Shown: positions 1,042 to 64,000 of the stretch, one piece after another
Numbering within the stretch: the stretch's first letter is position 1
Layout of the letters: each line of letters begins with the position of its first letter
Assembly: GCA_964513075.1 (NCBI GenBank)
Contig: CAZELR010000002.1
Span: forward strand, 1,205 to 65,204
Origin: an uncultured Anaerolineales bacterium
GTDB taxonomy: Bacteria > Chloroflexota > Anaerolineae > CG2-30-64-16
DNA length: 64,000 nt
Reading direction: 5' to 3'
Translations under genes and position numbers: made by a program
Notes under the pieces: generated by a model
The model's database searches: none
What the model saw: the letters and a program-made list of their open reading frames with translations, nothing else
What the model was told of the DNA's origin: nothing

Positions 1042-2826
1042 CTATCGGATGTGCCCAAGCGCATCCGATACTAGTGCTTCCGGTACTCCATCTACCATCT
1101 CGACCCGTCCGATATCGCGTATTACCACGAAGCGCAGGCTGCGGCCGCGGCGTTTCTTGTCCGTGCCCATCGCGGCCAGCGCTGCGTTCGGGTCGAAGGA
1201 GTAGCGGACCGGCAGGCCGTGGCGTTCGACCGCGCTGCGGATCTTTTCGGGCAGGTCAATCGCACACAGCCCCAGGCTCGCGCTGAGCTCGGCCGCGGCC
1301 ACCAGCCCCAGGCCCACCCCCTCGCCATGGCGCAGCGTGAACCCCGAGATGAGCTCCAGCGCGTGGCCGAAGGTGTGCCCCAGGTTCAGCCACGCCCGGT
1401 CGCCGGCCTCGAACGGGTCGCGTTCCACGATGTCAGCCTTGACCCGGACCGCGGCGGCGATCATGCTGACCATGTCGGGTGGCTTTGCGTGGTGCGTATT
1501 GTGGCGACCTGCGGGTCGTGATGCGTATTGCGTGTTGCGTGTTGCGTGTTGCGTCTCTTTTTCCGGACTCGGGGCTTCAGCCGGTTTCTCGGGGCAGCGG
1601 GAACAACCGGCTAAAGCCTCGATTCCGGTGTCCAGGCGGTCGAAGAGCTCCGGATCGCCGATGATGGCGGTCTTGATGATCTCGGCCATGCCGGAGCGCA
1701 ATTCGACGCCTGGCAGGGTGGCCAGCAGGTCGGGATCGATCAGCACCAACGCCGGCTGTTTGAACGCGCCGACCAGGTTCTTCCCCTCGGGCAGGTCCAC
1801 GCCCGTCTTGCCGCCCACACTGGAGTCCACCATCGCCAGCAGGCTGGTTGGGATCTGCACGAACGGCACGCCGCGCAGCCACGTGGCGGCCGTGAACCCT
1901 GCCATGTCACCGACCACGCCGCCGCCCAGCGCGATCACCGGCTCGTTGCGCGCCAACTTGGCGGCTGTCAGTTGGGCATACAGGCCGGCCATCGTGGCCA
2001 ACGTCTTGTGCTGCTCGCCGTCCGGAACCTCGCAGACCAGCGGCTCGAAGCCGGCCACGACAAGCGATGTGCGCAGCGTCTCCAGGTGATATTGTCCGAC
2101 CGTCGGGTTGGTGATCACCGCGCAGCGGCCCGGGGGCAGGCCGGCCTCGACGATGTGGCGTCCTGCTTGTCTTAGGACCCCGCCCGCGATGAGGACCGCG
2201 TAGCCAGACGAAGGACGAACGACGGACGACGAACGATGGATGACGGACGACGAATCGGCTCCTTCGTTCTTCGTCTTTCGTCTTTCGTCTCGTATGACGA
2301 GGCAGTGCCCGCCCTCGGGCAACCCCGCGACAATACCCAGCACCCGCTCGGCGGCCGCGGCGATGGTCAGGTTGCCGGTGTCCAGGTGATGCGGTATGGC
2401 GGCGTAGGCATCGGCGCGCTGCGCGAGGAGGGCCCGGATGCGCGCCAGGCGGTCGCCTCCGGCGAGCATGGGACGGCCGGCGTCATCTCCGACGCGGCGT
2501 AGGATCACCTCGGGCGCGGCGTCGAGGCAGATCACCGTGCCTCCAGCCGCCAGCGCCTCCCGGTTGGCCGGATCGATGGCCGCGCCCCCGCCCGTTGCCA
2601 CCACCAGCCCCTGCGGCGCGGCCAGCTCCCGGCAGACGGCGGCCTCCAGCGCCCGAAACGCATCTTCGCCGTCTTCGGCGAAGATGGCCGGGATCGGTTT
2701 GGCGGCGCGTTCTGCGATGACGTCATCGAGGCTCACAAACCGACGTCCCAGCCGCGCGGCCACGACAGGGCCGACGCTGGTCTTGCCGGTGCCCATGAAG
2801 CCGGTGAGGATGATATTTTGTGTCAT
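1042..2826 (-). CDS. aroB: Shikimate kinase fused to 3-dehydroquinate synthase (AroK-AroB, one continuous ORF)
   Basis: N-terminal GFMGTGKTSVG Walker A of shikimate kinase; downstream DHQ synthase motifs (GGGVVGDMAGF, SSVGGKTGVDL, LNLGHTFGHALE); real start MTQNIIL at 2826; the track ORF is extended through an upstream heptamer repeat; two repeat insertions are read in-frame. Confidence 0.8.
   Translation of the reverse strand: MTQNIILTGFMGTGKTSVGPVVAARLGRRFVSLDDVIAERAAKPIPAIFAEDGEDAFRALEAAVCRELAAPQGLVVATGGGAAIDPANREALAAGGTVICLDAAPEVILRRVGDDAGRPMLAGGDRLARIRALLAQRADAYAAIPHHLDTGNLTIAAAAERVLGIVAGLPEGGHCLVIRDERRKTKNEGADSSSVIHRSSSVVRPSSGYAVLIAGGVLRQAGRHIVEAGLPPGRCAVITNPTVGQYHLETLRTSLVVAGFEPLVCEVPDGEQHKTLATMAGLYAQLTAAKLARNEPVIALGGGVVGDMAGFTAATWLRGVPFVQIPTSLLAMVDSSVGGKTGVDLPEGKNLVGAFKQPALVLIDPDLLATLPGVELRSGMAEIIKTAIIGDPELFDRLDTGIEALAGCSRCPEKPAEAPSPEKETQHATRNTQYASRPAGRHNTHHAKPPDMVSMIAAAVRVKADIVERDPFEAGDRAWLNLGHTFGHALELISGFTLRHGEGVGLGLVAAAELSASLGLCAIDLPEKIRSAVERHGLPVRYSFDPNAALAAMGTDKKRRGRSLRFVVIRDIGRVEMVDGVPEALVSDALGHIR
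1487..1555. repeat. Degenerate heptamer tandem array (GTRYTGC units), family C
   Basis: gtgcgtattgtg...gtgatgcgtattgcgtgttgcgtgttgcgtgttgcgt; other arrays at 2843-2882, 6219-6275, 26107-26150 and 44551-44624. Confidence 0.7.
2205..2292. repeat. Imperfect hairpin repeat (GACGAAG units / CTTTCGT units), family A, copy 1
   Basis: Left arm of GACGAAC/GACGGAC units, right arm TTCGTCTTTCGTCTTTCGTC; second copy at 6755-6853. Confidence 0.7.
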
Positions 2827-2885
2827 GATCGAGGACTTTCTGATGTGCTGCGTGTTACGTGGTGCGTATTGCGTATTGCGTGAGA

Positions 2886-4104: not shown

Positions 4105-5382
4105 CTACCCCAGCACCCGCACCAGGTGATACTGCTTCTTGCCCGTCCTCAAGACCACGTAGGCGCCTTCGATGACCTGCGCGATGGTGATAGCTCCCGA
4201 CGCGTCATCGACGCGCACGTTGTTGACGTAGGCGCCGCCCGAGGCGAGCAGCCGGCGCGCCTCGCCTTTGGACTTCACCGCGCCGGTCTCGACTAACAGG
4301 TCTACGAGCGGCTTGCCTTCTCCCTCGAACGCCGTCTTCGGCTGCTCGCTGGCCGGCACGTCGGCAAAGATGTCGGCGATGTCCGACGCAGCCAGGCCTT
4401 CGATGGCGCCGCCGAAGAGCACTTGCGATGCCTTTTCAGCGTCGGCTAAGGCTTGGTCGCCGTGCACCAGCCGCGTCACCTCGCGCGCCAAGGTTCGCTG
4501 CGCGTCCCGGCGTTCGGGATGTTCCCGCGTCGCGGCCTCTTGGGCGGCGATCTCATCCGCGGTCAGCCAGGTGAAGTAGCGCAGGAAGTTGACCGCATCG
4601 GTGTCAGGCTGGTTCAGCCAGAACTGGTAGAAGCGGTACGGCGAGGTGCGCTGGGGATCCAACCAGATGGCGCCCTGTACGGTCTTGCCCAGCTTAACCC
4701 CCTCGGCGCCGGTGACCAGGGGGTAAACCATGCCGTAAGCCCGGGCGCCTTTGACGCGGCGGATCAGCTCGACGCCCGCGGTGATGTTGCCCCACTGATC
4801 GCTGCCGCCGGCCTGCAGGGTGCAGCCGAAGCGCTCGTGCAACTGCAGGAAATCGTAGGCTTGCAGCAGCATGTAGCTGAACTCGGCGTACGAGATGCCG
4901 TCCTGCCGGTCGAGCCTTGATTTGACCGAGTCCTTGGCCATCATGTAGTTCACCGTGAAGTGCTTGCCCACGTCGCGCAGGAAGTGCATCATCGGGATGG
5001 TGGTCAGCCAGTCGGCGTTGTTCACGATGCGGGCAGGGTTAGTGCGGACTTCGAAATCGAGGAAGCGCGCCAACTGGCCGCGAATCGCCTCCACATTGAC
5101 TGCAATCGTCTCCAGGCTTTGCAATTGGCGCTCCTGGCTTTTGCCGCTAGGGTCGCCGATCATGCCAGTGCCGCCGCCCGCGAGTGCGATGGGGGTGTGT
5201 CCCGCGCGCTGCATGCGCGCCAGTCCCATCAGCGCCAGTAGATTCCCCACCTGGAGGCTGGTCGAGGTCGGGTCGAATCCGATGTAGGCGGTCACCTTTT
5301 CCTGGGCCAAGGTATCAGGCAAGCCTTCGGTGAAGTCATACACCAGGCCGCGCCAGTGGAACTCATCGAAAACGTTGGTCAT
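4105..5382 (-). CDS. tyrS: Tyrosyl-tRNA synthetase (class I, with C-terminal S4 domain)
   Basis: GFDPTSTSL...[22 protein letters not shown] core, KLGKT (KMSKS) motif and S4-like C-terminus; the HIGH motif reads QVGN; embedded in the aro operon with overlaps on both sides. Confidence 0.85.
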
Positions 5383-6283
5383 TTGCTTCTAGCTCCTTTC
5401 TCATCAGTCGGGCAAGACTGCCCGCATCGATTCCTGTCCACAATGCTGCCGCTTGCGCGCCCTGGTGCACCAGCATCCCCAGCCCATCGATGGCTGTGGC
5501 GCCTTGCGACCGGGCCAGCGCCAGCAGCGCGGTGGGCCGGTGATAGATCAGATCGTACACCACCTGGTCCGACCGGAACGCCGCATCCGGCTCCCACGGC
5601 AGCGCATCCCCTGCGTGTAACCCTAAACTGGTCGCGTTGACGATCAGGTCGGCCCAAGGCGCCAGCTTCGGCAAGGCGCCGGGAAACGCATGTGCGCTCA
5701 GCCGGTCAGTCGCATCGGGCAGGGCCGCGCACATTGCTCGACATAATCTATCAGCATGCTCCGGCGTCCGGTTGGCGACGGCCACCTCCGCACCGGCCTC
5801 CAGCAGCGCATAGGCCACCGAGCGTGCCGCGCCGCCAGCGCCGAGGACGATGGCTCGGCGACTTCGCACCCCATGCGCCTGTAAATCCGCCATGAATCCC
5901 GCGCCGTCGGTGTTGTCGCCCAACAGTGAGCCATCGGCCCGCACGATAAGGGTGTTCACAGCCCCCGCCGCCTGCGCCATCGGCGTCAGTTCGTCTAGGA
6001 AGGGCATGACCGCCTGCTTGTGCGGCACGGTAACATTGGCTCCTGCGAAGCCAAGCGCAGCCAGCCCGGCCACAGCCTCGCCCACGCGTTCCGGCGCCAC
6101 CGGCAGCGGCACATAGACCCAATCCAGTCCTAGCGCCGCATACGCCGCGTTGTGCATCGCCGGGCTCAGGCTGTGGTCCACCGGCCAGCCGAGCAGGCCG
6201 ACCAGGCGGGTTGCGCCCGTGATGCGTGATGCGTGATGCGTGGTGCGTGGTGCGTATTGCGTATTGCGTACTGCTTTAGTCAT
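5363..6283 (-). CDS. aroE: Shikimate dehydrogenase
   Basis: [12 protein letters not shown] and GDNTDGAGF motifs plus an NAD(P) Rossmann fold ([15 protein letters not shown]); the ATG at 6283 overlaps the aroA stop (ATGA); the first ~24 aa are encoded by a heptamer repeat array. Confidence 0.85.
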
Positions 6284-7710
6284 TCGTCCATCGCTGATTC
6301 GTCACTCGCCCACTCGATTTCCGCCCCCAGGGACCTCATCGTCTCCACGAAGCTCGGGAACGAGTCACCGATTGCTTCGGCCCCCCGGACGGTGGTCTGA
6401 CCGCCTGCAACCAGGCCGGCCACCGCGAGGGCCATGGCCAGGCGATGGTCATGGTGGCATTTTACCACAGCACCTCTCAGTTGGGTGGGTCCGGTCACAA
6501 TCATGCCGTCCGGTCGTTCCTCGATAGTCGCGCCCATCTTCCGTAGCTCTGTCGCGACCGAAGCAATGCGGTCCGACTCCTTAACTCGCAGCTCACCGGC
6601 CTCGCGCACGACTGTTACGCCCTCCGCCTGCGTCGCGGCTACGGCGAAGATCGGGAACTCGTCGATCGCACGCACGATCAGGTCGCCGGCGGCTTCTGTG
6701 GCGCGCAGGGCGGCGCCCTGAACGGTGATGTCGGCGATCGGTTCGCCTGTCGCGGATGAAGGACGAAGGACGGACGACGAAGGACGAAGGACGGATGACA
6801 AGGTGCTTTCCTGCGGGTCGGCGCTTTCGTCTTTCGTCTTTTGTCTTTCGTCAGTCACGCACATCTTTGCTCCCATCGCCGCCAGCAGATCATACAGCCC
6901 CGTGCGAGTGGGATTGACGCCGACGCCGGGCAGCCGGATCTCTGAGCCCGGCACGATCGCGGCCGCGACCAGTGGAAACGCGGCGGAGGAGAAATCGGCG
7001 GGGATAGTGATGCCGTCGAGAGGCGCGCGCAATGCTTGCCCGCCGCGCAAGCGAACGGTCAGCTCTTGGGACTCGACGGCCACACCGAAGTCGCGTAGCA
7101 TGCGTTCGGTGTGATCGCGCGATGGTCCCGGCTCGTGAAGGATCGTCTCACCTTCAGCGAACAAGCCCGCCAGCAGGATGGCCGACTTGACCTGAGCACT
7201 GGCGACCGGCAGGCGGTAATCGATGCCCCGCAGGTTGCCGCCCTGGATAGTGAGCGGCGGCAGCCGGCCGCCGTCGCGGCCCAGCACCGTCGCGCCCATC
7301 AGCCGCAGCGGCTCGGCGACCCGGCCCATGGGGCGGCGGCGCAGCGGCTCGGTTCCGGTCAGCACGCTGGTGAACGGCTGCCCTGCCAGGAGCCCGGCCA
7401 GCAGCCGGATGGTAGTGCCCGAGCCGGCGCAGTGCAAAACGTCCTCCGGTTCGGTCAAGCCGTGCAGGCCGCGGCCGCGGATGAGCAGATCGGAGCCGAA
7501 ACCTGTCTTCTGGTCGTCAATGCTCACTCCGAGGGCCTGCATACAGCGCAGCGTCGCCATGCACACCTCCGCCGGCACCCAGCCGCGGATGCGCGTCTCG
7601 CCGTCGGCCAACGCGGCCAGGATGATTGCCCGGTGGGTGATCGATTTGTCGCCCGGCACGGTGGCTTGTCCGCGTAACGGGCCGGAAGGGTGGATGATCA
7701 GGTCTCGCAT
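6280..7710 (-). CDS. aroA: 3-phosphoshikimate 1-carboxyvinyltransferase (EPSP synthase)
   Basis: MRDLIIHPSGPLRGQATVPGDKSITHRA matches the AroA N-terminus; start chosen at ATG 7710, although the track ORF extends to 7770 through a GTTGAAT repeat; contains an in-frame hairpin-repeat insertion. Confidence 0.85.
   Translation of the reverse strand: MRDLIIHPSGPLRGQATVPGDKSITHRAIILAALADGETRIRGWVPAEVCMATLRCMQALGVSIDDQKTGFGSDLLIRGRGLHGLTEPEDVLHCAGSGTTIRLLAGLLAGQPFTSVLTGTEPLRRRPMGRVAEPLRLMGATVLGRDGGRLPPLTIQGGNLRGIDYRLPVASAQVKSAILLAGLFAEGETILHEPGPSRDHTERMLRDFGVAVESQELTVRLRGGQALRAPLDGITIPADFSSAAFPLVAAAIVPGSEIRLPGVGVNPTRTGLYDLLAAMGAKMCVTDERQKTKDESADPQESTLSSVLRPSSSVLRPSSATGEPIADITVQGAALRATEAAGDLIVRAIDEFPIFAVAATQAEGVTVVREAGELRVKESDRIASVATELRKMGATIEERPDGMIVTGPTQLRGAVVKCHHDHRLAMALAVAGLVAGGQTTVRGAEAIGDSFPSFVETMRSLGAEIEWASDESAMDE
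6755..6853. repeat. Family A hairpin repeat, copy 2 (inside aroA)
   Basis: gaaggacgaaggacggacgacgaaggacgaagg ... ctttcgtctttcgtcttttgtctttcgtc. Confidence 0.7.
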
Positions 7711-7726
7711 GGTGAGTACCGTATGT

Positions 7727-8605
7727 TCAATGTTGAATGTTGAGTGTCGAACGTTGAATGCGGTGATCATGGGCGCGCGTCAGGGTTGTCCGCAGTGTGG
7801 GCTCGTCCTCTGCTGCCAGTGATTCACGCAAGCCTGCGAGCTGCGCCGCATAGGCGTCCAGCCAGTCCAGCACGGCCGAACGATTGGTCAGCAGGATGTC
7901 CAGCATCATGTCCACGTCGCTGGCGGCCAGGCGGGTGGTGTCGCGGTAGCCGGATGCTGCCAGCGACCGGGCTAACGGATCATCGGCGGTCGAGACGGTG
8001 TTGACCAGCGCGGCCGCGACCGCGTACGGCAGATGACTGATGGCTGCCACGGCCCGATCGTGCGCGGCCGGGTGCAGGATGACCGGCCGTGCACCGACCG
8101 CCTCTACTAACGCGCGGGCCTGGGCCAGCGCAGCGCCCGATGTCCGCGACAGGGGACAGAGAACAAAGGTCTTGTTGCGGTAGAGCCCCGCCTCAGCCGC
8201 CGCGAACCCGGCTAGCTCCTTGCCGCACATGGGATGTCCGCCCACAGGCTGCAATTCTGGGGGCAGGTTTGCTAGCGCCGCACAAATCTCGACTTTGGTG
8301 CTGCCCAGGTCGAGCACCAGCGCGCCGGGCCTGGCGGCGCGGCCCACCTCCGGCAGTTGGCGCAGGATCGTGCGGGCCGGCGTGGCGAGCACGATCACAT
8401 CAGCGTCTGCCGCGCCCTCAGCCAGGTCGGTCGTGCCAAAATCAATTGCGCCGGCCTCAAGCGCCGCGCCGAGCGTCTCTTGCCTGCGCGCGACGCCGAC
8501 GATGCGTTGAACGCCGTCCCCGGAACCTTCAGCCTCCCGCAGCGCCAGCGCCAGCGATCCCCCCATCAGTCCAAGCCCCACGATGCACACAGTCGGCAAG
8601 TTCAT
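7727..8605 (-). CDS. tyrA: Prephenate/arogenate dehydrogenase
   Basis: N-terminal Rossmann fold IVGLGLMGGSLALAL; TyrA-family length and layout; lies in the aro operon between the DAHP synthase and aroA. Confidence 0.8.
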   Translation of the reverse strand: MNLPTVCIVGLGLMGGSLALALREAEGSGDGVQRIVGVARRQETLGAALEAGAIDFGTTDLAEGAADADVIVLATPARTILRQLPEVGRAARPGALVLDLGSTKVEICAALANLPPELQPVGGHPMCGKELAGFAAAEAGLYRNKTFVLCPLSRTSGAALAQARALVEAVGARPVILHPAAHDRAVAAISHLPYAVAAALVNTVSTADDPLARSLAASGYRDTTRLAASDVDMMLDILLTNRSAVLDWLDAYAAQLAGLRESLAAEDEPTLRTTLTRAHDHRIQRSTLNIQH

Positions 8606-11170: not shown

Positions 11171-11200
11171 TGCGTTACTGGATTTTTCAAGAACGACGGG

Positions 11201-11229
11201 ATCATAGCACGGCAACTAAAAACTGTCAA
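11201..11229 (-). promoter_or_regulatory. Sigma70-like promoter of the pheA leader (TTGACA-17-TATGAT)
   Basis: Minus strand reads TTGACA gtttttagttgccgtgc TATGAT, about 25 nt upstream of the leader-peptide ATG. Confidence 0.5.
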
Positions 11230-11265
11230 ACGCCAAGATGTTGGCGGGGTGTGGCTACCCATCTG

Positions 11266-12144
11266 TCAGTTAGCAGCCTCGATCTCGTGCAGGATGGTCT
11301 CCAGGTCGTCCCGGTTGAACTCGTAGCGCGCATAACAGAAGTGGCAGTCCACGGTGGCCTCGCCCTCGATCAGCAGCGCCAGGATGTCATCGTAGTCCAG
11401 CATCTTCAGCGCCTGGCGCGAGCGTTCCCGACTGCACGAACAGCGGAACGCCAGCGGCTCGGATTCCAATACCTCATACTCGATCCCAGTGAAGGACCTC
11501 GCCAGGATATCTTCCGGAGTCAGACCGCCGGTCAGCAGCGTCTCCAGGGATGGCAGCCCTTCTATGTTGGCTGCCAGGCGTGCGAACTCTGCGGGGCTGT
11601 GGCCGGGCATGGCCTGGATAAGCAAGCCGCCGGCCGCGGCTATGCTCCCGCCGTCCATTTGAACGCCGATCTGAGCGAGCGAGGGTACCTGCTCGGAGGT
11701 GTTGAAGTAGTGCGTCAGCTCTTTATCCAGCTCGCCGTTCTCCAGCTCCACCACGCTGCTGTAGAGGCTCTTGATGCGCAGGTCCTTCACCACGGTCAAC
11801 TGGCCCGTGCTGCCGATTGCTGCGGCCACCGCCGCGCGGTCTATGGTTTGTGGCGCCGCGATATCGGGGACAGCCACATAACCCCGCACGCGGCCGTACG
11901 CGTCGGCCTCGATCACCACCTTGCCCAGCGGGCCGTTTCCCTCGACCTTCAGGGCGACGCGCTCCTGAACCTTCAGAAGCCCGCCCAACAGCGCGCCGGC
12001 GGTCAGGCCATAGCCCAGCGCGGCTGCCGCGACCGGGTAAGCCGCGTGGCGCTGGGCCGCTTCCTGGGCCAGGCCGGTGGTGATGCAGGCGAGCCCGCGC
12101 ACGCCCGCCTGTTTGGCAATGGCTCGTACCATCGTATCGCTCAT
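11266..12144 (-). CDS. hslO: Hsp33 redox-regulated chaperone
   Basis: Hsp33 fold with C-terminal zinc centre CSCSRE...CHFC. Confidence 0.9.
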   Translation of the reverse strand: MSDTMVRAIAKQAGVRGLACITTGLAQEAAQRHAAYPVAAAALGYGLTAGALLGGLLKVQERVALKVEGNGPLGKVVIEADAYGRVRGYVAVPDIAAPQTIDRAAVAAAIGSTGQLTVVKDLRIKSLYSSVVELENGELDKELTHYFNTSEQVPSLAQIGVQMDGGSIAAAGGLLIQAMPGHSPAEFARLAANIEGLPSLETLLTGGLTPEDILARSFTGIEYEVLESEPLAFRCSCSRERSRQALKMLDYDDILALLIEGEATVDCHFCYARYEFNRDDLETILHEIEAAN

Positions 12145-17144: not shown

Positions 17145-17189
17145 GGAATCGAGGCTTCAGCCGGTCTGACCGCCTAAAGGCTCGATTCC
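17145..17189. repeat. Hairpin element ggaatcgaggctt...aaggctcgattcc, family D
   Basis: A related copy (ggcttcagccgg ... ccggctaaagcctcgattcc) sits at 1571-1630 inside aroB. Confidence 0.6.
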
Positions 17190-18628: not shown

Positions 18629-19537
18629 CTATTCCGCAAACGGCTGGAAGACCGGCGCCAAGTCGCGCTTGCCCGCATACTCCAACTGCGGCTTCTGCGT
18701 GTAGCTACCTTTCAGCTTTTTGGTTACCTTCTGAGCCAACTGGCGATAGGTGAGCTGCCCGCGTGCTTCCTGGATGGTTTCGGCCAGGTAGTATGTGAAC
18801 GCGCCGTGGTAATCTCCTGCGATGTGGGCGTCCGCCGAGGTCTGGTCAGGACGGCAGCCGGCCAACAACACGTTTGACTCGTGGGTGCGCACGGCGCCAA
18901 AACGTTCCTTCTTGAAAGCGATTGTCAGGCCAAGGATCTTGTTGCGCAGTTCCTCATCCGTTAGGTCCTGGCCGCGCAGAGCCTTCACCCCTTGAAACAC
19001 GAATTCCTGCTGGTCGTGGGCGAATTTGGCTGCGGCCGCTTCGATCTTTTCTTCCTCTTCCCAGGATACAGGCAGGAACCGGTACACGACATCTCCGAAG
19101 GGGGCCCGGTTGTTGGTGCCCGAGTGGCAGCTGTCCATCATCAGGGTCAGGTTGCCGCCTTCGGGAAAACGATCGTAGAGAATCTTGAGGGTATCGTCGG
19201 TGAGGAAGCCGACGGATTCGTAATCGAACGGCACCAGGCATTCGTCGCGGCCATCCGGCTCATCGCCGTTTGTATCGGCCACGTAGGAGCCGTGACCTGA
19301 ATAGTGGAAGATGCGCACGGCATCGGAATCTGCGCCCCCCTCTGCCAGCCAGCCGAGCCCAGCCTGGATTCCGGCAGCGGTAGCGTCGCCATCTATCAGT
19401 AGCTTGATATCATTATCCTTGAAGCCGTAGTATTGCTTCAGCAGGCCTCGCACCTGTTGAACGTCGTTGATACAACCGCGCAGGGGCGCGTTAGGGTATG
19501 CATTGATGCCGACCAACAGTGCTTTACGGACTGACAT
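18629..19537 (-). CDS. Caspase-family (C14) peptidase, standalone metacaspase-like
   Basis: Catalytic His-Cys dyad context HYSGHG ... DSCHSG; 302 aa with no accessory domains; GGGAGG RBS. Confidence 0.8.
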   Translation of the reverse strand: MSVRKALLVGINAYPNAPLRGCINDVQQVRGLLKQYYGFKDNDIKLLIDGDATAAGIQAGLGWLAEGGADSDAVRIFHYSGHGSYVADTNGDEPDGRDECLVPFDYESVGFLTDDTLKILYDRFPEGGNLTLMMDSCHSGTNNRAPFGDVVYRFLPVSWEEEEKIEAAAAKFAHDQQEFVFQGVKALRGQDLTDEELRNKILGLTIAFKKERFGAVRTHESNVLLAGCRPDQTSADAHIAGDYHGAFTYYLAETIQEARGQLTYRQLAQKVTKKLKGSYTQKPQLEYAGKRDLAPVFQPFAE

Positions 19538-19575
19538 AGAAGCCTCCCATGTATGAGTGACTAGCCAACATTGTT

Positions 19576-19637: not shown

Positions 19638-22600
19638 TCATCCCAATAATCGTCCCTCCAGCCGTTGCACCCACGCCGCCTGATCGCTGAGCGTGGCGGC
19701 CAGGTGGCCGGGGTCGTGGCCGTAGCCCAGGCGGCGGGCCAGGAACGCAAACTCCTCACTCCCTTCGGGTGGCACGGTGAGGTCCTTGCTGTTGCCGCGC
19801 ACGACCCGCAGCGCGTTGATAAGTTGCTGGAGGAAGATGTGCGCCTGGTGGAGGCGATGGGCGTTTTCCTGTGACAGGAAGCCGTGAGCCGCCAGTGCGG
19901 CGATGGCCGCGCGGGTGTTAGTGAGGCGCAGGTCGGGGTGGACCGCGCCGTGCCGCATCTGCAATCCCTGTACGACGTACTCCACATCCACCAGCCCGCC
20001 CAGGCTGTACTTGGCGTTGAATGCGCCTGGGGTGACGATGTGGCGGAGTTGCCGTTCGCGCATCGCGCGCATGGCGGCCACGTCGAAGCTGCCGGCATCA
20101 TACACGTAGGCATCGCGCAATGCCTCCACCTGCCGGCCCAGGTCGGCGTCTCCAGCGATGGCACGCAGCTTAATGAGGGCCTGCCGCTCATAGGCCCAGG
20201 CGGGACCCTCAGGCGCGAAGTAGCGGCGGAACGCGTCTAGCGGCACGGCAAGACTGCCGGCCTTGCCGTAAGGACGCAGCTCCAGGTCGATCTCAAAGAT
20301 GCCCTCGCGGCGGGCCCAGATCGCGCGGCCGAACTCCGTCACAAGTTTGTCGAAGAATTCAGCGGCGCTGGTGGCACGTGGGCCGCTTGTCTGTCCCGAT
20401 CCGGCGTAGATGAACATCACCTCGATGTCGGACGCGTAACCCAACTCGAAGCCGCCGCATTTGCCCAGCACGCAGACTGCCAACGGGATAGGCGCGCCGT
20501 CTGCCCCGCGCGGCGTGCCGTACTGCGCGGCCAGCTCCTCCTGCACCATGCGTGCGGCCGCTGCGACCACCGTTTCCACCAGGTCGGTCAGCTCGCCGGA
20601 GAACGCGTCGAAGTCCCGCGTATGACCCAGGATATGGCGCATGTCGATGCGGAACATCTCCCGATCCTTGAATGCGTTTAGCGCCGCACGTCGCGCCCCA
20701 AGATCAGGCGCAGTGGCAATTAACGTGCTCAGTTCTGCAGCCAGCTCGACCTTGCGCCGCGGCGCAGCCAGCGCGTCGACATCGGCCACCACCGGGAAGA
20801 GGTTCGCATACTGCATGCGCAGGAAGTCGTCCCAGAGAAACTCGCTGACCCCCAACAGCCGGGCGAGCGCATCCAATACCTCGGGTCGCTCCAGCGAGGC
20901 CAAGTCATCGGGCCATGAGGGTCGGCTGAACAGCTCGCCCAGATACTCGTGGAAGTGCAACAGCGCGGATTCCGGGTTGGGCGAACGCGGCAGCAGGTGG
21001 GTGAAGTGCTTGATGAGCACTGTGGCTGCGCGCAGCTCCCGCTGCCTGTCAGGTGCGGTGATCTTGCCGCCGCGGCTGTCTGTAACAAGGAGCGTGTCCT
21101 GCACCCGGTTGCCTGTCGAGATCACGGACACCTGGCTGATGTGGATGCCGCGCAAGGCCAGGGCGTTGGTGAACTCGTAGAGAAAACCGGGCGTGTCGGC
21201 CGCGCTGATGCGGAGGACGGTGTAGGCTGGCGATGCATCATTGTCGATCTCGATATCTACTGGGGGCAGTGCAGGCGCGGTTGCGATGCTGACCTGCAGC
21301 GCCTCGGCCACGCGTTTGGCCAGTACGCCCTGGGCCATGCGCTGTTCGCGCGCTTGCAGCAGTTCCACCAATGCCAGCAGGTCTGCGCTGTAACGCGGCC
21401 AGATCTTCTTATCAGGCTGCACCGTCGCCACCGGCCGCACCTGGAATACGTCGACAATCTTCCGCCGCGCGTCTGCTGCCTGTCCTCTCTCCCCTGCTCC
21501 CTTGCTCCCCCGCTCCCCAGCTTCCACTCCGGGCTCATACGTATACACATGCCCGTCCACGATGCTGAAGCCGTATGCGAACAACAGCCCGCAGATCACC
21601 GACAGCTCGCCCAGATAGTCGTAGCCAACGATGGTGACGCGCCAGAGATCATCGGCCAGCGGCCGCGCCTCCACCGTAACCGGTGTGGACGCATCCAGCC
21701 GGGCGGCCATGCTCGCGTGTCGCTCGACCTCTGCCGGATCGAAGGTGGCCGCGTAGGAGGGCGCCAGCCGCGCCAGGTGCAAGCGGACCGTGTCCGCCCG
21801 GACCGTGTCCGCCCGGGCTGTGTGCACCTGCAGCGTGTCTTCGTGCGTGGGTGTTGTTTTGGTTGGCTGTTCCGGGATCATGGTCAGGCCTCCGGATGGG
21901 GAGTGGTGTAGGGTCGCGGCTGTGGGCGCCGTCAGATGACGCAGATAGATCGCACGCACTGCCTGGCTGTGCTGCTGGTAGCGCGCAGTGAAATGGACGC
22001 GGGCGTCAGGGCCCTGGAAGCCCAGTCGGCGGGCCAGGTAACGCAGGTCGGCCGGGTTGGCCGGCAGCGTGTGCGTCTGGCGGTAGTCGAGGATCTGCAG
22101 GTAGTGCTCGACCGTGCGCAAGAAAGTGTAGCCCTCCGCCAGGATGCGATGGTCTTCGGCCGGCAAGTAGCCGGCCTCGGCCAGCCGTGCCAGCGCCTCA
22201 CGCGTGTTGCCGGTGCGCAGGCCCGGATGCTCGCGGCCGTGGGCCAGTTGCAGGTATTGGGCCACGAATTCGGCGTCGCGGATGGAACCCTCTCCCAATT
22301 TGACCTCGCCCCAGGTGCGGCCCGCCTCGCGCAGGTGGGCCTCGGTGGCCTGTTTCATGCCGTGCACCTCGACGCGCACCTCCTCCGGGCTTGCGCTGAA
22401 AAGCCGGGGTTCGGCACGGCGCAGGAAGTCCGCCCCGATCTGCTCATCGCCCGCCATAACCCGCGCCTTCAGCAGCGCCTGACGCTCCCAGAGCCGCGCA
22501 TACCGCTCGAGGTAGGCCAGGTAGCCATCGACTGTCGAGACTAGCGGACCGACGCGACCCCAGGGCCGCAGCCGCATGTCGACGCGGTACAAGAATCCTT

Positions 22601-23964: not shown

Positions 23965-23988
23965 GCTTTAATTCCAGTCACAAACCCT

Positions 23989-24033
23989 CGTTTTCCAAAC
24001 CAGGTTTCGCCGAGAAACCTGGTTTGGAAAACG
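23989..24033. repeat. REP-like perfect 20-bp palindrome with 5-nt loop
   Basis: cgttttccaaaccaggtttc-gccga-gaaacctggtttggaaaacg; related core aaacc(a/c)gg(a/t)ttc in the 29448-29486 palindrome. Confidence 0.7.
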
Positions 24034-24037
24034 AGAT

Positions 24038-26786: not shown

Positions 26787-26810
26787 AGCGTATTCCTGGT
26801 CAGTGTGCCT

Positions 26811-26845
26811 CAAGTTTGGCATCCCTCGCAGGGATGCCAAACTTG
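26811..26845. repeat. Perfect 15-bp palindrome with 5-nt loop between ccmH and ccmG
   Basis: caagtttggcatccc-tcgca-gggatgccaaacttg; no flanking U-tract on either strand. Confidence 0.65.
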
Positions 26846-26851
26846 AGTTGC

Positions 26852-29441: not shown

Positions 29442-29447
29442 TCACCT

Positions 29448-29486
29448 ATCAGAAACCCGGATTCAGGGAGAATCCGGGTTTCTGAT
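29448..29486. repeat. REP-like perfect 17-bp palindrome with 5-nt loop between convergent genes
   Basis: atcagaaacccggattc-aggga-gaatccgggtttctgat. Confidence 0.7.
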
Positions 29487-29511
29487 ATGCATGGTTTCGG
29501 TTGGCGTCTTG

Positions 29512-32366: not shown

Positions 32367-32798
32367 GGAGCGAGGCGCCCGGGGTGTCTTGCCTCTTCTC
32401 TGAGGTTTGCGCCCTGAAAAAAGTTGTGCTAGGATAACCCAGCAGAACCCTGCCGTGCTCGTGATGTTCCAACAGCGTTTTGAGCCAACATGAATACAAA
32501 GGGAGCTGGACATCCCGGCCGGAGATGCAATAGCTGCGCACGCCGCTTCGTGTGACGTGCGTCTTAGCAAAGCAGAACTGACCGGCAAGGCACCCACCTG
32601 CGAAAGCAGGTTCAAAACAGTCGAGCACACGGCACAGCGGGGGACTCAGAATATAAACGGCCATTTGGGAATGCCCAGATGGCCGTTTTGAGTTTTGTAA
32701 AACCCTTGACATAGCCTCTCGGATTGTGCTATTCTTGATCCAACAGCCGTCCGTGCTGGTGCCGACCGGCCGATTCCTAGTCTTAATCGAGGAACCCT

Positions 32799-39927: not shown

Positions 39928-42312
39928 GTGTACTTTACTGTGTCAAATCAAAAAAGAATAAGAAGGGGCTTTCGGGCAATCGAGGGCGATTGGCGGCGGG
40001 TGGATCTTCATTTGCACACCCCCGCGTCGGCGGACTGGCAAGAGCCAAGCGTCACTTACCTCGAATGGTTGCAGAAGGCGGAGTCGAAGGGCCTCGACAT
40101 TGTGGCGATCACCGATCACAACACCGTTGAGGGGATTGCCAAGTTGCGAGCCGAGATTGAACGGCTTGCGTGGTTGGAGGCCAACGACCGGTTACGTCCC
40201 CAGGAGCGACGGGAATTAGATGAGTACCGCCGTATTGGCGACAAGATCCTGGTGCTGCCCGGTTTCGAGTTTACCGCTATGTTCGGCTTCCACATTCTCG
40301 CCATCTTCCCGCCCGAAACATCGCTCCGCAAGCTGGAATTGCTCCTGCTGCGTCTCAACGTGCCGGATAACCGGCTCATTGAGGGCAGCACGGAAGTCGG
40401 CGCGAGCACTGATGTGCTTGCAGCGTACCGCCAGATCAACGAGGCCGGCGGCATTGTCATTGCCGCGCACGCGAACAGCACGCACGGTGTGGCGCTGCAG
40501 GGCCTTAGCTTCGGCGGCCAGACCAAAATTGCCTTCACACAAGATCCCCACCTGCACGCGCTGGAAGTCACCGACCTGGAAAGCGTTTCCCGGCGCGCCA
40601 CCGCGCGTTTCTTCGACGGCTCCAAGCCCGAGTATCCGCGACGCATGCATTGCATCCAGGGCTCCGATGCGCATCGGCTGAACCGCGATCCCAAGGACAA
40701 GAATCGCCTGGGAGTGGGAGAGCGGGTGACTGAGGTGCTGCTGCCGGATGTTAGCTTCGATGCGTTGAAAGCGGTCTTCGACGGCGACGATTTCGCGCGC
40801 ACGCGGCCTTATCGGCTGCCGGCCGAGGTGCCTTTCGACCACATCGAGGCCGCTCGCGAGCAAGGCAACACCATTATTCAGGTATTCCACGAGAGTCTGT
40901 CTCGTGAGGGTGGCCGGCTCCACAAAGTCTTGTGCGATGTGGTAGCATTCGCGAATACCAATGGCGGCACCGTGTATATCGGCGCCAGCGCCACGCGCAA
41001 GACGCCCCCCAAGGGCGTGGAGAATGCAGATCAAGCCGCCATCTTGCTGCGCCGCGAGATCGAGCGCAATGTGAATCCCCCGTTGGACGTACGGGTCGAT
41101 CTTGCCCAAAGCCTGGGCGTACCGATTGTGCGTGCCGTGGTGCCCAGCGGCCCTAATAAGCCCTATGCGTTGAGCCAAACGCGCATCTATGTTCGGCAAG
41201 AGGGCGAGACGAACGAGGCGATGCGTGACGAGCTGGTCCAGCTTGTCCTCAGTGGGCAACCGGTTGCGACCGAGGCAGTGGTCCTGGCTGCGCCGGTAGC
41301 TGCGCCTCCGCCGCCGGAGCATAAGCCGACTGTGGTCAAGAAGCTTCAGAAAGAGCCGGCAGCCGAGCCGGTTGTGGCGCCCCAGGTTGCCACCGTCACT
41401 GTACCGCCCGTGGTCGACGAGGGGCCATCCTTGCCTTCCATCGGTGTTGAGATCGTGGACATGGAAGAGCGTAAGGGTGCGCGTTACTTCACTATTCGCG
41501 ACCTGCGCAATGGCAATACCGTGCAGAACGTGACCATGCAGTCGGCGCGCAAGCTGTGGAGCTATGCGATCAGCCAATACCTGACGAACCCGGTGGATGC
41601 GGCCCGTGTCGAGTGGCGTGGTGACTTGGGACTCTGGCAGTCGGCGCGACGCGCCAAGGCGCTGCGCTATGACTTGGCGCTGCGTCAGACGGATGGCACG
41701 GTGCGTGTTTTTTATGGCGTTACGGGGGATGGCATGACTGGGCCCTGGGCGCAGTTCCTGAAGGCCGAAGATCGTGGTGAACCGGGGCAAGAAGACGACT
41801 ATGACAGCGGCTCTGCTCCGGAGTTGGAGGCCGAGTGGGAAGCGGCACTGCAGGCGGACTTTGATCTGGAGCCGGTTGCGCTTGCGCCATCCCGGTCAGG
41901 TGAGAAAGCATCGAACCGCGCGGCCGTCGAGTCGAAACCACAACCTGAGGCCAAGCCGGCGGGACGAAGCAGCCGCCAGCCGCGCACCAAGAAAGCCGCT
42001 GTCGCGCCTCAAATCGAGGAACAGGGCGCAGAAAACGCTGCCGAGGTAGTTGCACCGGCCTCAGCGTCGGCGCCTTTATCTGATGTGAAGCCGGTGGTAG
42101 ATGCCGCTGCGCCCCAACCGGAGGCGAAGCCCAAGCCCTCCCGCCGTTCTCGCGCCAAGGTACAGCCTGAGGCTGCGCCAAGTGACGCAGGTTTGGCCCC
42201 CGTCCCGGCAGCTCAGATCGTCCCAGTGCTCCCCGAGGCCAAACCAGCCCCGCGCAGCCGATCGCGCAGTCGCAAGCCCAAGGCTGAGACTGTAGCCCAC
42301 GAAGATGCCTGA
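39928..42312 (+). CDS. PHP-domain phosphoesterase fused to an AlbA_2 (Schlafen-like, divergent AAA) domain and a Lys/Ala/Pro-rich C-terminal tail
   Basis: N-terminal PHP metal-binding motifs (DLHLHTPASADW, ITDHN, AHANS); AlbA_2-like core KVLCDVVAFANTNGGTVYIGAS; last ~170 aa are PEAKP/KPK-rich low complexity. Confidence 0.7.
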   Translation: MYFTVSNQKRIRRGFRAIEGDWRRVDLHLHTPASADWQEPSVTYLEWLQKAESKGLDIVAITDHNTVEGIAKLRAEIERLAWLEANDRLRPQERRELDEYRRIGDKILVLPGFEFTAMFGFHILAIFPPETSLRKLELLLLRLNVPDNRLIEGSTEVGASTDVLAAYRQINEAGGIVIAAHANSTHGVALQGLSFGGQTKIAFTQDPHLHALEVTDLESVSRRATARFFDGSKPEYPRRMHCIQGSDAHRLNRDPKDKNRLGVGERVTEVLLPDVSFDALKAVFDGDDFARTRPYRLPAEVPFDHIEAAREQGNTIIQVFHESLSREGGRLHKVLCDVVAFANTNGGTVYIGASATRKTPPKGVENADQAAILLRREIERNVNPPLDVRVDLAQSLGVPIVRAVVPSGPNKPYALSQTRIYVRQEGETNEAMRDELVQLVLSGQPVATEAVVLAAPVAAPPPPEHKPTVVKKLQKEPAAEPVVAPQVATVTVPPVVDEGPSLPSIGVEIVDMEERKGARYFTIRDLRNGNTVQNVTMQSARKLWSYAISQYLTNPVDAARVEWRGDLGLWQSARRAKALRYDLALRQTDGTVRVFYGVTGDGMTGPWAQFLKAEDRGEPGQEDDYDSGSAPELEAEWEAALQADFDLEPVALAPSRSGEKASNRAAVESKPQPEAKPAGRSSRQPRTKKAAVAPQIEEQGAENAAEVVAPASASAPLSDVKPVVDAAAPQPEAKPKPSRRSRAKVQPEAAPSDAGLAPVPAAQIVPVLPEAKPAPRSRSRSRKPKAETVAHEDA

Positions 42313-44483: not shown

Positions 44484-44550
44484 GCATCACGCACCACGAG
44501 ATTCTTCGCCCTGCGGCCATCTGCGGATGGTCGGCGCTCAGAATGACATG

Positions 44551-44624
44551 CACTACGCACCGCGCACCACGCAATACGCAGTACGCAATACGCAGTACGC
44601 AATACGCAGTACGCAATACGCTAC
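44551..44624. repeat. Heptamer/14-mer tandem array (ACGCAATACGCAGT x3-4), family C
   Basis: Intergenic between the DUF4037-like gene and mmdB. Confidence 0.7.
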
Positions 44625-48845: not shown

Positions 48846-49619
48846 ATGATTCGCTTTCGCGCGGTGTTCACGGGCTGTCTCCTGCTGGGCCTGACCCTGG
48901 TGGGGGCGGCGCCTGTGCTGGCTGCCAGCGCCCCGCAGGCATTGACTCCGCTGCAGGCGCCCATTGAGGGCTTCGATCGTTTTTTGGCGTTCCTCGCCAA
49001 TCCCAACGTCGCCTATCTGTTGTTGGTGATCGGCCTATTGGGTGTGGTTGCTGAGGTGGTCACTGCCGGGGCGGTGTTCCCGGGCATTGCTGGCGCCATT
49101 TGTCTGCTGCTGTCAGCTTATGGCCTGCTGCGTTTACCGACCAACTGGATTGGGCTGGCGCTGATCGCCGCGGGCATCGTGATGTTCGTGCTGGATCTCA
49201 AGATCTCCGGCATCGCCCTGAGCATCGGCGCGGTGATCGCGTTTGCCCTGGGATCGCTGTTGATCTTCACACCGTTTTGGGTGAGCGTCGATCTGGCGGT
49301 CCCGGTGGCCCGCTTGAATCCGTGGTTGATCGCCGGCGCGACCGGGGGTGTGGCGGCGTTTTTCTTGCTGGGTCTCGCGGCCGCGGTGAAGGCGCAACTC
49401 AGGCCGGCCGCCATGGGGTCGAAGACATTGCTGGGTAAGACAGGTAGTGTGAAGACGGCGCTGGCGCCCCAGGGGATCGTGCACGTGGAGGGCGAGGAGT
49501 GGAGTGCGGTCAGCGCCACCGGCGCCCACTTGCCGGCCGGTGCGTCGGTGCGGGTGATCGGCCTGGATGGACTGACGTTGCGGGTCACCCCGTTGTCAGA
49601 GCCGGAATCGAGCCTTTAG
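48846..49619 (+). CDS. NfeD-family membrane protein
   Basis: Signal peptide, multiple TM segments and a C-terminal OB-fold; AAGGAGG RBS; partner of the downstream SPFH gene. Confidence 0.8.
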   Translation: MIRFRAVFTGCLLLGLTLVGAAPVLAASAPQALTPLQAPIEGFDRFLAFLANPNVAYLLLVIGLLGVVAEVVTAGAVFPGIAGAICLLLSAYGLLRLPTNWIGLALIAAGIVMFVLDLKISGIALSIGAVIAFALGSLLIFTPFWVSVDLAVPVARLNPWLIAGATGGVAAFFLLGLAAAVKAQLRPAAMGSKTLLGKTGSVKTALAPQGIVHVEGEEWSAVSATGAHLPAGASVRVIGLDGLTLRVTPLSEPESSL

Positions 49620-49696
49620 GCGGTCTCAGGCCCGGTAACGCCGAACCGGGCGAAGTCTCGAATCCAATAACAATAACCATCTCAAGGAGGTTCCCT

Positions 49697-62541: not shown

Positions 62542-64000
62542 TCAGTGGACAAGCTTACCGGATTCCGGCTCGGCCGCAACCAAATCGGCGCCACTGGCGT
62601 CTGTCCAAAGCCGGCGCATCCCCTCCGACGTTGCCAGCAGTTCATCCAGCGTGCCTTCGGCTTCCACGCGGCCATCCAGCAGCACGATGATGCGATCGGC
62701 CCGGCGCAGCACCGCGCGGCGGTGGGAGACGGCAAGAACGGTCGCGGGGGTTGAAGGTTGGAAAGTTGAAGGCGCAAGGTCGTCATCACCCCCCGAGCCT
62801 TCATTTCCGTCTTTAAACCCTGAACCTTCGACCTTAAACTTTGAACCTTGAACCTTCAACCCCACGCGCTCCCACAGGATCTCCTCCGTCTGCACGTCCA
62901 GCGCGCTGGAGAGGTCATCGAAGACCAACAGCTCAGGCGCGCGCGCGAACATGCGCGCCGCGGCTGCGCGCTGCACCTGGCCGCCGCTCAGCCGCACCCC
63001 GCGCGGTCCGACGAGGGTGTCCAGGCCATGCTCCAACGTGGCGATGTCGGGTTCCAGCACCGCGCGCCAGATGGCATACTGTATCTCACCCTCTATCCCC
63101 ATCAGTACATTCTCTCGCAGCGTCGCGCTGAACAGGCGCGGCACCTGGGCGGTGTAGGCGGCGCACGGCCGGCCCCGCGGCGGCGAAGCCAACAGCGCGG
63201 CCGGATCGACCACAGGCTCGCCGTCCCACACGATCTCGCCCGCGTCGCGGGCCAGCAGGCCCAGCACGGCGCGCAGCAGCGTCGTCTTGCCCGAGCCGAT
63301 CTGCCCGGTGATGACCACGAAGCTGCCGCGGGGCACGCTGAAGGTGACGTCCCGCACGCCGCGATCGGCACCTGGATGGAAACAGGTGAGGTGGCGCACT
63401 TCCAGGAGGGGCGGCAGAGGCCCAGTTCCGGGAGAAGACGGCGTCACCCTGAGCGAGTCTGCGGCGCAAGGTTGGCTGCGGCTCAAGCTCAGCGAAGGGT
63501 CTTGTTGGCCGGGTTGAGATCCTTCGCTGGGGTCTCGGCGTGACTGCTTTTGGGCCGACAACCCGCTCAGGGTGACTTTCTGGTGGGTCATGGGGTGATG
63601 TTCCACCAGTACCTCCGGCGGCTCATCCGGGATCAGTTCGACCAGGCGGCTGATGGCCACCTCCTGCTGCTTGATGTCGCCGACGAAGCTGCCCAGGTAC
63701 GACGGTAGGTCGGTGGTGAACCACAGGTAGTAGGTGAACAGCGCAAAGTCACCCACGGTGAACGCACCCTGTGTCATCGCCTGCCCCGCCAGCAGCAGCA
63801 TCACCCCAACACCGACCACGACTGCGATGCTGTTCATAGAGAAGGCGAGCTCTTCCAGCACCGCGGCCCGGATCGTGGCCCGGCTGCGCGTCTCGGCCAG
63901 CCGGCTGAAATGGGCGACGGTGTGCGTCTCGGCGCCGGCCACTTTCACCGCCTGGACCGCGCCGAACAGCTCGGCTAGGAAGCCGATCACCGCGTCCCCG
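62542..64000 (-). CDS. ABC exporter, fused permease/ATPase; N-terminus outside the window
   Basis: Walker [10 protein letters not shown], signature LSGGQVQR, Walker B LLVFDD; ORF remains open at the window edge; carries a repeat-encoded in-frame insert before the H-loop. Confidence 0.8.
62748..62862. repeat. Family B hairpin with large loop inside the ABC transporter gene
   Basis: ggttgaaggttggaaagttgaagg ... ccttcgaccttaaactttgaaccttgaaccttcaacc. Confidence 0.7.

Follow-up and report, generated by a model that had tools for sequence, protein, structure and literature searches.

How can an essential enzyme carry, in the middle of one of its domains, repetitive DNA that is read in frame, and where does such DNA come from? 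The question is raised by the aroK-aroB gene, a fusion of shikimate kinase and 3-dehydroquinate synthase (DHQS), on a contig of an uncultured Anaerolineales bacterium (GenBank assembly GCA_964513075.1, contig CAZELR010000002.1, positions 1,205 to 65,204). The whole stretch of 64,000 nt that was analysed is called the window hereafter, and positions without a contig label refer to it. An initial annotation, made from the letters alone, had described a single composite repeat of 150 bp inside the DHQS domain, combining a GTRYTGC heptamer array (1487-1555) with a hairpin (1571-1630), and had likened it to the palindromic elements of Rickettsia. We found that repeat DNA of about 147 nt (1480-1626) is read in frame and without a stop between conserved DHQ synthase segments of this minus-strand gene, as seen from the open reading frame (ORF) and the Pfam matches. 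It is made up of a hairpin and a heptamer array, both in frame, but these are two separate elements and not one composite unit. The insert is likely to represent two pieces of selfish or neutral repeat DNA, both translated, lodged in a surface loop that tolerates them, within the C-terminal helical part of DHQS.

Two repeat elements in the aroK-aroB gene

In the ORF listing the aroK-aroB frame spans 1042 to 2910 on the minus strand, with the ATG at 2826 as the probable start. Three Pfam domains share this one frame and score above the curated cut-offs: SKI (residues 11-162, 134.6 bits), DHQ_synthase (265-377, 156.7 bits) and DHQS_C (446-558, 121.4 bits). As the DHQS_C match begins only at residue 446, corresponding to profile position 29, the C-terminal domain is split. 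In the orthologue alignment the metal-binding motif NLGHTFGHA, the motif GGGV.GD and other invariant columns are intact in AroB, and by its Pfam domains and its conserved metal and NAD motifs the protein belongs to AroK-AroB; a 100% identical AroK-AroB protein is present in NCBI (P0001). The gene is part of an aromatic amino-acid operon comprising pheA, DAHP synthase, tyrA, aroA, aroE, tyrS, aroC and aroKB, within which the tyrosyl-tRNA synthetase gene (4105-5388) sits between aroE and aroC. The host genome is of a free-living type with 63% GC and is Anaerolineae-like by its homologues.

The hairpin, which we call H, is a 62-nt inverted dimer similar to repetitive extragenic palindromic sequences (REPs). 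On the coding strand it reads from 1626 to 1565 as GGAATCGAGGCTTTAGCCGG, a 22-nt loop and CCGGCTGAAGCCCCGAGTCC, and the inverted repeat has arms of 24 nt (1563-1586 and 1605-1628) that are 88% complementary. Folded as RNA it reaches -40.7 kcal/mol (z-score -7.6), a value equalled by none of 200 shuffles. The hairpin of the initial annotation is real, with a core (1565-1626) slightly wider than the limits given there; the peptide quoted for the insert was correctly translated, but its repeat-coded part starts seven residues earlier because the residues GIEALAG are encoded by the first hairpin arm. Downstream of H on the coding strand follow an 11-nt spacer, three GCAACAC units, one GCAATAC, one GCATCAC, a small palindrome and about 2.5 further units down to position 1487. 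Tandem Repeats Finder (TRF) reports the main array at 1517-1554 (period 7, 5.4 copies, 90% matches) and the further 2.5 units at 1485-1503, beyond the small palindrome (1506-1517; GACC-TGCG-GGTC on the plus strand, GACC-CGCA-GGTC on the coding strand). The heptamer array at the place first described was thereby borne out, also by the number of GTRYTGC dimers in the window, 19 compared with 0.43 expected; the unit occurs at 5 loci.

The same gene holds a second in-frame insert, a heptamer hairpin of the type (GACGAAR)n-loop-(YTTCGTC)n in the linker between AroK and AroB, consisting of two TRF arrays (2207-2254 and 2270-2290) and folding at -45.7 kcal/mol (z-score -3.4). Peptides coded by the repeat inserts include NTQYASRPAGR from the AroB insert and HNTHHAKPPDMVSMIAAAVR. 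An Rfam scan of the inserts returned no family, the sole hits being chance miRNA-like matches far under threshold. Readings of the insert as an intein, an intron or a frameshift were rejected: it is too short, carries no such motifs and keeps a single frame throughout.

In a phmmer comparison with the DHQS of Vibrio cholerae (3okf) the match is broken at the insert, where 47 query residues stand opposite 8. An AlphaFold2 model built with the orthologue alignment has a mean predicted local distance difference test score (pLDDT) of 81 and a predicted TM-score (pTM) of 0.83, and it matches solved DHQS structures with TM-scores of 0.85-0.90, normalised to the target. The pLDDT falls below 50 only at residues 183-205, the linker heptamer hairpin, and 403-449, the AroB insert; the helices flanking the latter (392-399 and 452-469) are modelled with confidence. 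Mapping onto the structure, which the initial annotation had proposed, gives a low-confidence loop between intact helices, and in the model the insert is at the protein surface and compatible with the DHQS fold, as has been described for Rickettsia palindromic elements (RPEs). The loop with its 46 extra residues is polar and probably disordered, and leaves the fold and the catalytic motifs untouched.

Repeated use of one loop and dispersal of the H family

The AroB loop could be parsed in 98 of the 120 best homologues. Each of these is an AroK-AroB fusion encoded in a metagenome genome of Anaerolineae/Chloroflexota; the closest of the 120 is 75% identical. A profile scan of contigs with the orthologue alignment gave, among the matches listed, only distant AroKB genes with at most 49% identity. 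The baseline loop comprises 17 aa (EQLATTGPASLTAMIAD) and is found in 53 of the 98 orthologues, while in the other 45 the loop is expanded by 3 to 74 residues, the 46 residues added in the window being the second longest expansion. The expansions are made of H, of types that we call D, F and Q, or of other sequences. Type D is a GACGNNN heptamer hairpin (GACGAAG hairpin; DGRPATGDRRPSSVVG in the orthologue L084) present in 12 proteins, type Q a run of GCAATAC-type heptamers, and type F (SLWDFSRSYEPTTEVVTTN) occurs in 11 proteins. The AroB loop is thus a hot spot used by at least four unrelated repeat families. The linker between AroK and AroB, with a baseline of about 10-17 residues, shows a similar picture: the hairpin type of the window recurs at this position in L081, L205 and L206, and L083 and L084 have heptamer arrays of other families there.

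At the DNA level type F is a GTAG-tagged REP dimer with the unit GTAG-T-GACGACT-TC-AGTCGTC, as seen in L206, where the spacer between pheA and aroF on the same contig holds a second copy, also arranged head to head (L206 sites 11200-11270 and 2767-2823). The H arm has the same layout of tail, stem and TC apex, but without the GTAG. The 7-nt stem of F, GACGACT, resembles the heptamer units GACGAAG and GACGACG. Heptamer hairpins may, judged from these sequences, be REP stems expanded in a 7-nt register. A search of the window for an F-type element found none, and the F arms gave no match in viral contigs.

DNA could be obtained for six of the orthologous genes. In three of them (L081, L082 and L083, whose proteins are 70-79% identical to AroKB of the window) H is found at the identical codon, in the identical phase and with the identical length of 62 nt. 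The hairpin half is therefore not private to this genome: the expectation that the extra segment would be missing elsewhere holds for distant orthologues and the solved structures, but L081-L083 share the hairpin. That relatives might carry the segment as ordinary coding sequence with no repeat character, which would have spoken against a repeat insert, was not observed, since in these genes the arms have remained recognisable as members of the dispersed family and able to pair. The heptamer block was seen only in the gene of the window and its closest relatives. It is absent from L081, where one unit-like relic, AATGCAATCAC, is present, and in P0003 a heptamer-coded stretch stands behind arm 1. 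The recovery of H at the same AroB codon from independent assemblies (ENA, NCBI, Logan) also bears on the suspicion that the gene is a pseudogene or that the insert is an artefact of a metagenome-assembled genome. The source is uncultured and repeats are error-prone in assembly, but the ORF is intact, its catalytic motifs are invariant and the aromatic amino-acid operon is complete, so that we give this explanation practically no credence.

In a neighbour-joining tree the H type appears in the clade of the window and again in the separated L082/L083 clade, with intervening lineages carrying other inserts or none. The one uninserted DNA sequence of the loop, ACCGGCCCGGCCTCG in L205 (around 2730), resembles arm 2 of H, ACCGGCTGAAGCCTCG, at 12 of 16 positions. 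This likeness could be a microhomology that would have guided insertion twice to the same codon.

Outside aroB the H family is widely dispersed. Five occurrences of its arm motif were counted in the window, compared with 0.03 expected: both arms in aroB, both at 17145-17189 and one at 49604. The copy at 17145-17189, already named as related in the initial annotation, is genuine, and a third, diverged copy was found at 49604-49665; both occupy short operon spacers. The third copy overlaps the end of the NfeD gene, to which it gives the TAG stop, and the SPFH/Band 7 gene begins 30 nt later. An exact search detected the arm on at least 120 metagenome contigs; it was not found in viral contigs, and a plasmid search likewise gave no match. 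Full elements are mostly 59-62 nt long, and for 52 of 63 full hairpins no apparent coding ORF surrounds the element. The four copies borne by AroB are among the 11 that seem to be coding; further hosts of in-frame copies are a LysA-DapF fusion with two copies, of which one interrupts the decarboxylase domain, as well as Lgt, a MobA-like nucleotidyl transferase, a PMT_2 glycosyltransferase and an ACS-like ATP-grasp protein. Non-coding tandem clusters of four copies each, similar to bacterial interspersed mosaic elements (BIMEs), were noted with periods of 78 nt and 127 nt (L138 2678-2972 and L162 1294-1733). H thus behaves as REPs and BIMEs do, being a short imperfect palindrome in many copies, mostly intergenic and arranged in inverted dimers or clusters.

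This dispersal bears on the explanation that no mobile DNA is involved and that a fast-evolving, low-complexity loop has grown by local slippage, its likeness to other loci being convergence. Slippage is the usual explanation of heptanucleotide repeats (Mrazek et al. 2007, as summarised in PMC4679880), the heptamer part could derive from a single unit-like seed such as the one visible in L081, and orthologue loop lengths differ in small steps. Against it, the family that H matches at about 90% in its arms is present on at least 120 contigs unrelated to one another and at two further loci of the window, a small set of heptamer units returns at numerous loci and in numerous species, and the F insert of relatives, a REP dimer tagged with GTAG, has intergenic counterparts in its own genome. 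Slippage can account for the growth of an array, but not for the recurrence of the same units at many loci. For the hairpin this explanation is already largely refuted, and for the insert as a whole we regard it as improbable.

An alignment of 46 copies gave the H consensus GGAATCGAGGCTTCAGCCGG...CCGGCTGAAGCCTCGATTCC, which contains neither a GTAG nor a CGTC tag. The arms are paired in 90% of cells, and no covariation between them beyond that of shuffles was detected among the 46 copies; the arms are therefore conserved as sequence, and no structure-selected RNA is claimed. Each arm further contains a mini-palindrome, GGCT-TC-AGCC, which is 98% paired, a value reached by none of 500 shuffles. 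Eight arms carry the form GCCT-TT-AGGC and none a single change; in the window the variant is present at 17170-17189 and 49604-49623. The pattern suggests that each arm is itself a putative small REP-like stem-loop or dimeric binding site.

Among the four AroB-borne copies arm identity ranges from 0.80 to 1.00, compared with 0.52-0.72 at four-fold degenerate sites of the same genes, and the 22-nt loop, with identities of 0.36-0.68, has diverged about as far as the four-fold sites. Since the arms are better conserved than four-fold sites, synonymous positions within them are held. This implies that nucleotide-level selection, gene conversion or repeated re-insertion may have acted on the arms. 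It also speaks for a different explanation, in which H is kept for a nucleic-acid-level role in the operon and the peptide is a by-product; H might stabilise the mRNA or mark where it is processed, might make translation pause between folding units, or might be bound by a putative arm-recognising protein. The conservation across four species, the very stable fold and the compensated G-C to C-G swap in the mini-palindrome are consistent with such a role, and REPs elsewhere have been proposed as RNA elements (PMC3733652). We nevertheless consider it unlikely, as 53 of 98 orthologues are insert-free and others carry unrelated elements, so that AroB needs no such function; in addition, the arms show no covariation beyond sequence conservation, H copies occur in both orientations relative to transcription, and gene conversion from other copies would give equal conservation.

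Repeat blocks across the window

The AroB insert is not isolated. In total 23 repeat blocks were identified in the window, about 15 of which are in frame inside conserved genes, the rest being located at gene boundaries; about 10 other in-frame repeat inserts accompany the one in AroB within the same 64 kb. The blocks inside genes are the two of AroB, the linker hairpin, the AroA hairpin, the GlnE arrays, eight blocks in PBP1A and the hairpin of the ABC ATPase. Their positions are listed in Table 1 together with those of the intergenic copies.

Table 1. Host gene, H copies and heptamer- or octamer-based repeats of the 64-kb window
Feature	Position	Strand	Remarks
aroK-aroB fusion (shikimate kinase + 3-dehydroquinate synthase), host of inserts	1042..2826	-	594 aa
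GCAAYAC heptamer array (coding strand; GTRYTGC on plus strand), in AroB	1487..1555	-	translation ETQHATRNTQYAS...HNTHHA; split by palindrome 1506-1517
H element, 62-nt REP-like inverted dimer, in AroB	1565..1626	-	arms GGAATCGAGGCTTYAGCCGG, 22-nt loop; translation GIEALAGCSRCPEKPAEAPSP
Heptamer hairpin (GACGAAR)n-loop-(YTTCGTC)n, AroK/AroB linker, in frame	2206..2292	-	translation RDERRKTKNEGADSSSVIHRSSSVVRPSS
GTRYTGC heptamer array, aroC/aroK spacer, just upstream of aroK start	2845..2881	-	TRF, pattern count
Heptamer arrays CGTGATG and TGCGTAT, aroA stop / aroE 5' end	6218..6274	-	TRF
Heptamer hairpin (GACGAAR/YTTCGTC type), in frame in EPSP synthase AroA	6754..6852	-	translation DERQKTKDESADPQESTLSSVLRPSSSVLRPSSA
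Heptamer array TCAACAT (coding strand), tyrA 3' end / aroA 5' end	7723..7760	-	TRF
H copy with short loop, between MFS transporter and peptidase C69 genes	17145..17189	.	z-score -5.5
Octamer array CAGGGGAG, in frame in GlnE	21489..21522	-	translation EAGERGSKGAGER
15-nt repeat, two copies, in GlnE	21784-21816		in frame
Longest GTAYTGC/ACGCAAT array, intergenic	44550..44621	.	TRF, 7.6 copies
Diverged H copy between NfeD and SPFH genes	49604..49665	.	provides NfeD stop codon
Four clusters of heptamer/octamer arrays and hairpins, in frame in PBP1A	58737-58838, 59043-59137, 59506-59565, 59728-59873	-	eight blocks
GGTTGAA/TTCAACC heptamer hairpin, in frame in ABC ATPase nucleotide-binding domain	62746..62862	-	between Walker B/D-loop and H-loop

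The PBP1A gene (58465-61317) is the most colonised of the window, with two clusters within the transpeptidase domain and about 150 residues added in total. At the site of the AroA hairpin the orthologues have differing sequences. A possible start of aroE overlaps the stop of aroA in the sequence ATGA (6280-6283), and if this start is used the array at 6218-6274 becomes an N-terminal extension of shikimate dehydrogenase.

All 14 heptamer units of the window are stop-free on the coding strand, and six of them contain stops on the opposite strand. Where a hairpin requires the stop-prone arm, this arm is short or its units are mutated, as in the ABC ATPase hairpin, in which no TGA is read. Such stop-free units and mutated stop-prone arms are expected from selection for an open frame, which argues that the inserts are translated. 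An untranslated insert, passed over by ribosomal bypassing or removed from the RNA like the palindromic 'byp' elements of yeast mitochondria, would need neither orientation nor mutation of the units to avoid stops, and every insert examined, in dozens of orthologues and about 10 other genes, is frame-keeping and stop-free. A hairpin of -40 kcal/mol in a coding region would be an obstacle to the ribosome, and a precedent in Magnusiomyces mitochondria is cited in PMC6649704, but we hold bypassing or removal to be very improbable here.

Arrays with a period of 7 are as dense in the window as in its close relatives (36 and 38 per 100 kb, respectively), compared with 7 per 100 kb in distant AroKB loci (556 kb), where they are concentrated in cyanobacteria; the more distant Chloroflexota loci had none. 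As in described heptanucleotide simple sequence repeats (SSRs), tandem 7-nt units are present and the same units occur at many loci, but the predominantly non-coding location of those SSRs is not shared, with about 15 of the 23 blocks inside conserved coding sequences.

Three further perfect inverted repeats of 18-22 nt with 3-5-nt loops, AT-richer than the genome, are located at 23987-24035, 26809-26847 and 29447-29487; unlike H in sequence, they could be terminators or another hairpin class. Rfam matches in the window comprise the bacterial large signal recognition particle (SRP) RNA (50654-50918), 6S RNA (32444-32647) and two tRNAs (48317-48402 and 48605-48691). A 794-aa Schlafen AlbA_2 protein (39928-42312) and a caspase-domain (Peptidase_C14) protein (18629-19573) may be products of defence or conflict genes.

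Probable origin of the inserts and comparison with known systems

Taken as selfish or neutral repeat DNA in a tolerant loop, the insert would have arisen in steps. The H family would have spread through intergenic spacers of an Anaerolineae-type lineage and entered the AroB loop before the lineage of the window split from its closest relatives. The GCAAYAC array, one of several recurrent heptamer families, would have been added beside H later, or have grown there by slippage. Three features would let the copies persist: they lengthen the gene by a multiple of three, their units contain no stop on the coding strand, and the loop is harmless to the fold. More generally, small repeats would survive where they do no harm, in operon spacers, interdomain linkers and surface loops; inside genes only frame-keeping, stop-free copies would last, and the AroB loop and the AroK/AroB linker would be permissive sites used repeatedly by different families. 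While the anatomy, the open frame, the dispersal of both families, the sharing with orthologues and the reuse of the site are observed, the translation and neutrality of the insert, the cause of arm conservation and the mode of insertion, by transposition of the type of REPs and their associated tyrosine transposases (RAYTs) or by gene conversion, together with replication slippage, are inferred.

Several observations weigh against this reading. The GTAG or CGTC tag of described REPs is missing from H; F does carry the tag of RAYT-mobilised REPs. No RAYT or IS200-like transposase was seen among the scanned ORFs of the 64-kb window, the ORFs of 27.6-30.0 kb and a few others lying outside the scan. 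A purely neutral relic would not show the arm conservation described above. H at the same codon in two separated clades means that a single ancient insertion does not suffice for everything, on a tree built by neighbour-joining only and with DNA from 6 orthologues only. Finally, translation of the insert is predicted from the sequence.

The closest described class is that of intragenic REP dimers (PMC3733652). REPs have been found inside genes of several bacteria, with dimers encoding 20-30 residues and clusters up to 82 (Di Nocera et al. 2013, PMC3733652); differing REPs occupy about one recB site in two Xanthomonas species, and Chloroflexi are among the hosts of GTAG REPs (PMC3733652). Like these REPs, H is a short palindrome, located mostly in intergenic regions downstream of genes, forming inverted dimers and clusters and lying wholly within ORFs in a minority of cases. 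Element ends can provide stop codons, as does the H copy at 49604, and F of L206, which carries GTAG, has the same unit layout as H. In contrast to REPs, H is untagged, its arms of 20-22 nt pair across a variable 22-nt spacer, it comes together with heptamer arrays, a large share of the copies is intragenic, and a RAYT gene is missing among the ORFs scanned.

The likeness to RPEs suspected in the initial annotation is one of behaviour and not of homology, and a relationship in sequence is not expected. As summarised in PMC10969869 and PMC6649704 (Ogata et al. 2000, 2002), RPEs are likewise dispersed palindromic repeats that lie in frame in unrelated housekeeping genes, are compatible with fold and function and are regarded as selfish DNA adding peptide segments. 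They measure about 100-150 bp, are confined to obligate intracellular, AT-rich Rickettsia and are reported to lose their repeat identity with time, whereas H measures 59-62 nt, its host genome is of the free-living type with 63% GC, and its arms stay conserved inside the gene. H therefore shares the dispersed in-frame palindrome with RPEs but neither their size nor their Rickettsia families, and it is set apart from these by description, RPE-4 and RPE-6 being CGTC-tagged (PMC3733652) and the ends of H lacking CGTC.

Among the long simple repeats of many bacteria, those with heptanucleotide units are the most frequent; they are described as mainly non-coding and under-represented in coding regions (PMC4679880, PMC4692102). 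The arrays of the window resemble heptanucleotide SSRs such as the cyanobacterial short tandemly repeated repetitive (STRR) sequences, TAACTGA of Beggiatoaceae and GGGAATC of Xanthomonas and Nostoc (PMC4679880, PMC4692102) in that there are many 7-nt families, some of them tandemly inverted, and array density is similar to that of the sampled cyanobacterial loci. They differ in that more than half of the blocks lie within conserved genes and in frame, often as hairpins. Repeats whose unit length is not divisible by three should be rare in genes. Intragenic MITEs (miniature transposable elements with inverted repeats) such as ERIC, Coxiella QMITE and the Anabaena MITEs (PMC10969869, PMC5896051) are also small non-autonomous inverted-repeat elements that can form in-frame ORF fusions. 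What defines a MITE is a pair of terminal inverted repeats that relate it to an insertion sequence, together with target-site duplications, neither of which is established for H. Its arms could count as terminal inverted repeats; a target-site duplication is not callable because the flanks CCGG...CCGG are part of the palindrome. The coding palindromes of Nematomorpha mitochondria (PMC6649704) share with H that both arms are translated, that positions are shared between species, that gain and loss are dynamic and that the arms are actively maintained, but they are perfect, with up to 142 bp per arm, contain native conserved residues and have no dispersed intergenic family.

In-frame insertion of REPs and RPEs was thus already known; what is new here is that heptamer hairpins are involved, how dense they are and that one site has been reused. 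The initial annotation had surmised that such inserts are little described for high-GC, Chloroflexota-like genomes, and our literature search, in an incomplete library where absence of a hit is absence of evidence only, found no paper describing heptamer hairpins or REP-like dimers in Anaerolineae housekeeping genes, and nothing relevant on heptamer repeats in Chloroflexi or Anaerolineae. In-frame palindromic repeats are usually seen as a peculiarity of Rickettsia and of a few proteobacteria rich in REPs; here they are dense in a free-living-type, high-GC uncultured member of the Chloroflexota, and tandem 7-nt units, which should be the worst passengers of a reading frame, are among the in-frame families. 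Such inserts inflate protein lengths, split Pfam matches and can mislead the annotation of metagenome-assembled genomes. With hits by at least four families, the AroB loop is a natural experiment on insertion-tolerant sites and on loops and linkers derived from repeats, and the conserved arms within coding sequences permit a direct test of selection against gene conversion and re-insertion. As a more speculative idea, which we hold only tentatively, a still-active process in this Anaerolineae clade might write dimers of the REP type and hairpins with a heptamer period into those loops of essential proteins that tolerate them, with arms under nucleotide-level control in coding sequences (by homing, gene conversion or an enzyme working in a 7-nt register) and with heptamer hairpins as REP stems expanded in that register. 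If true, this process would be a major source of novelty in the loops and linkers of the proteomes of the clade, at a density at least equal to that in Rickettsia.

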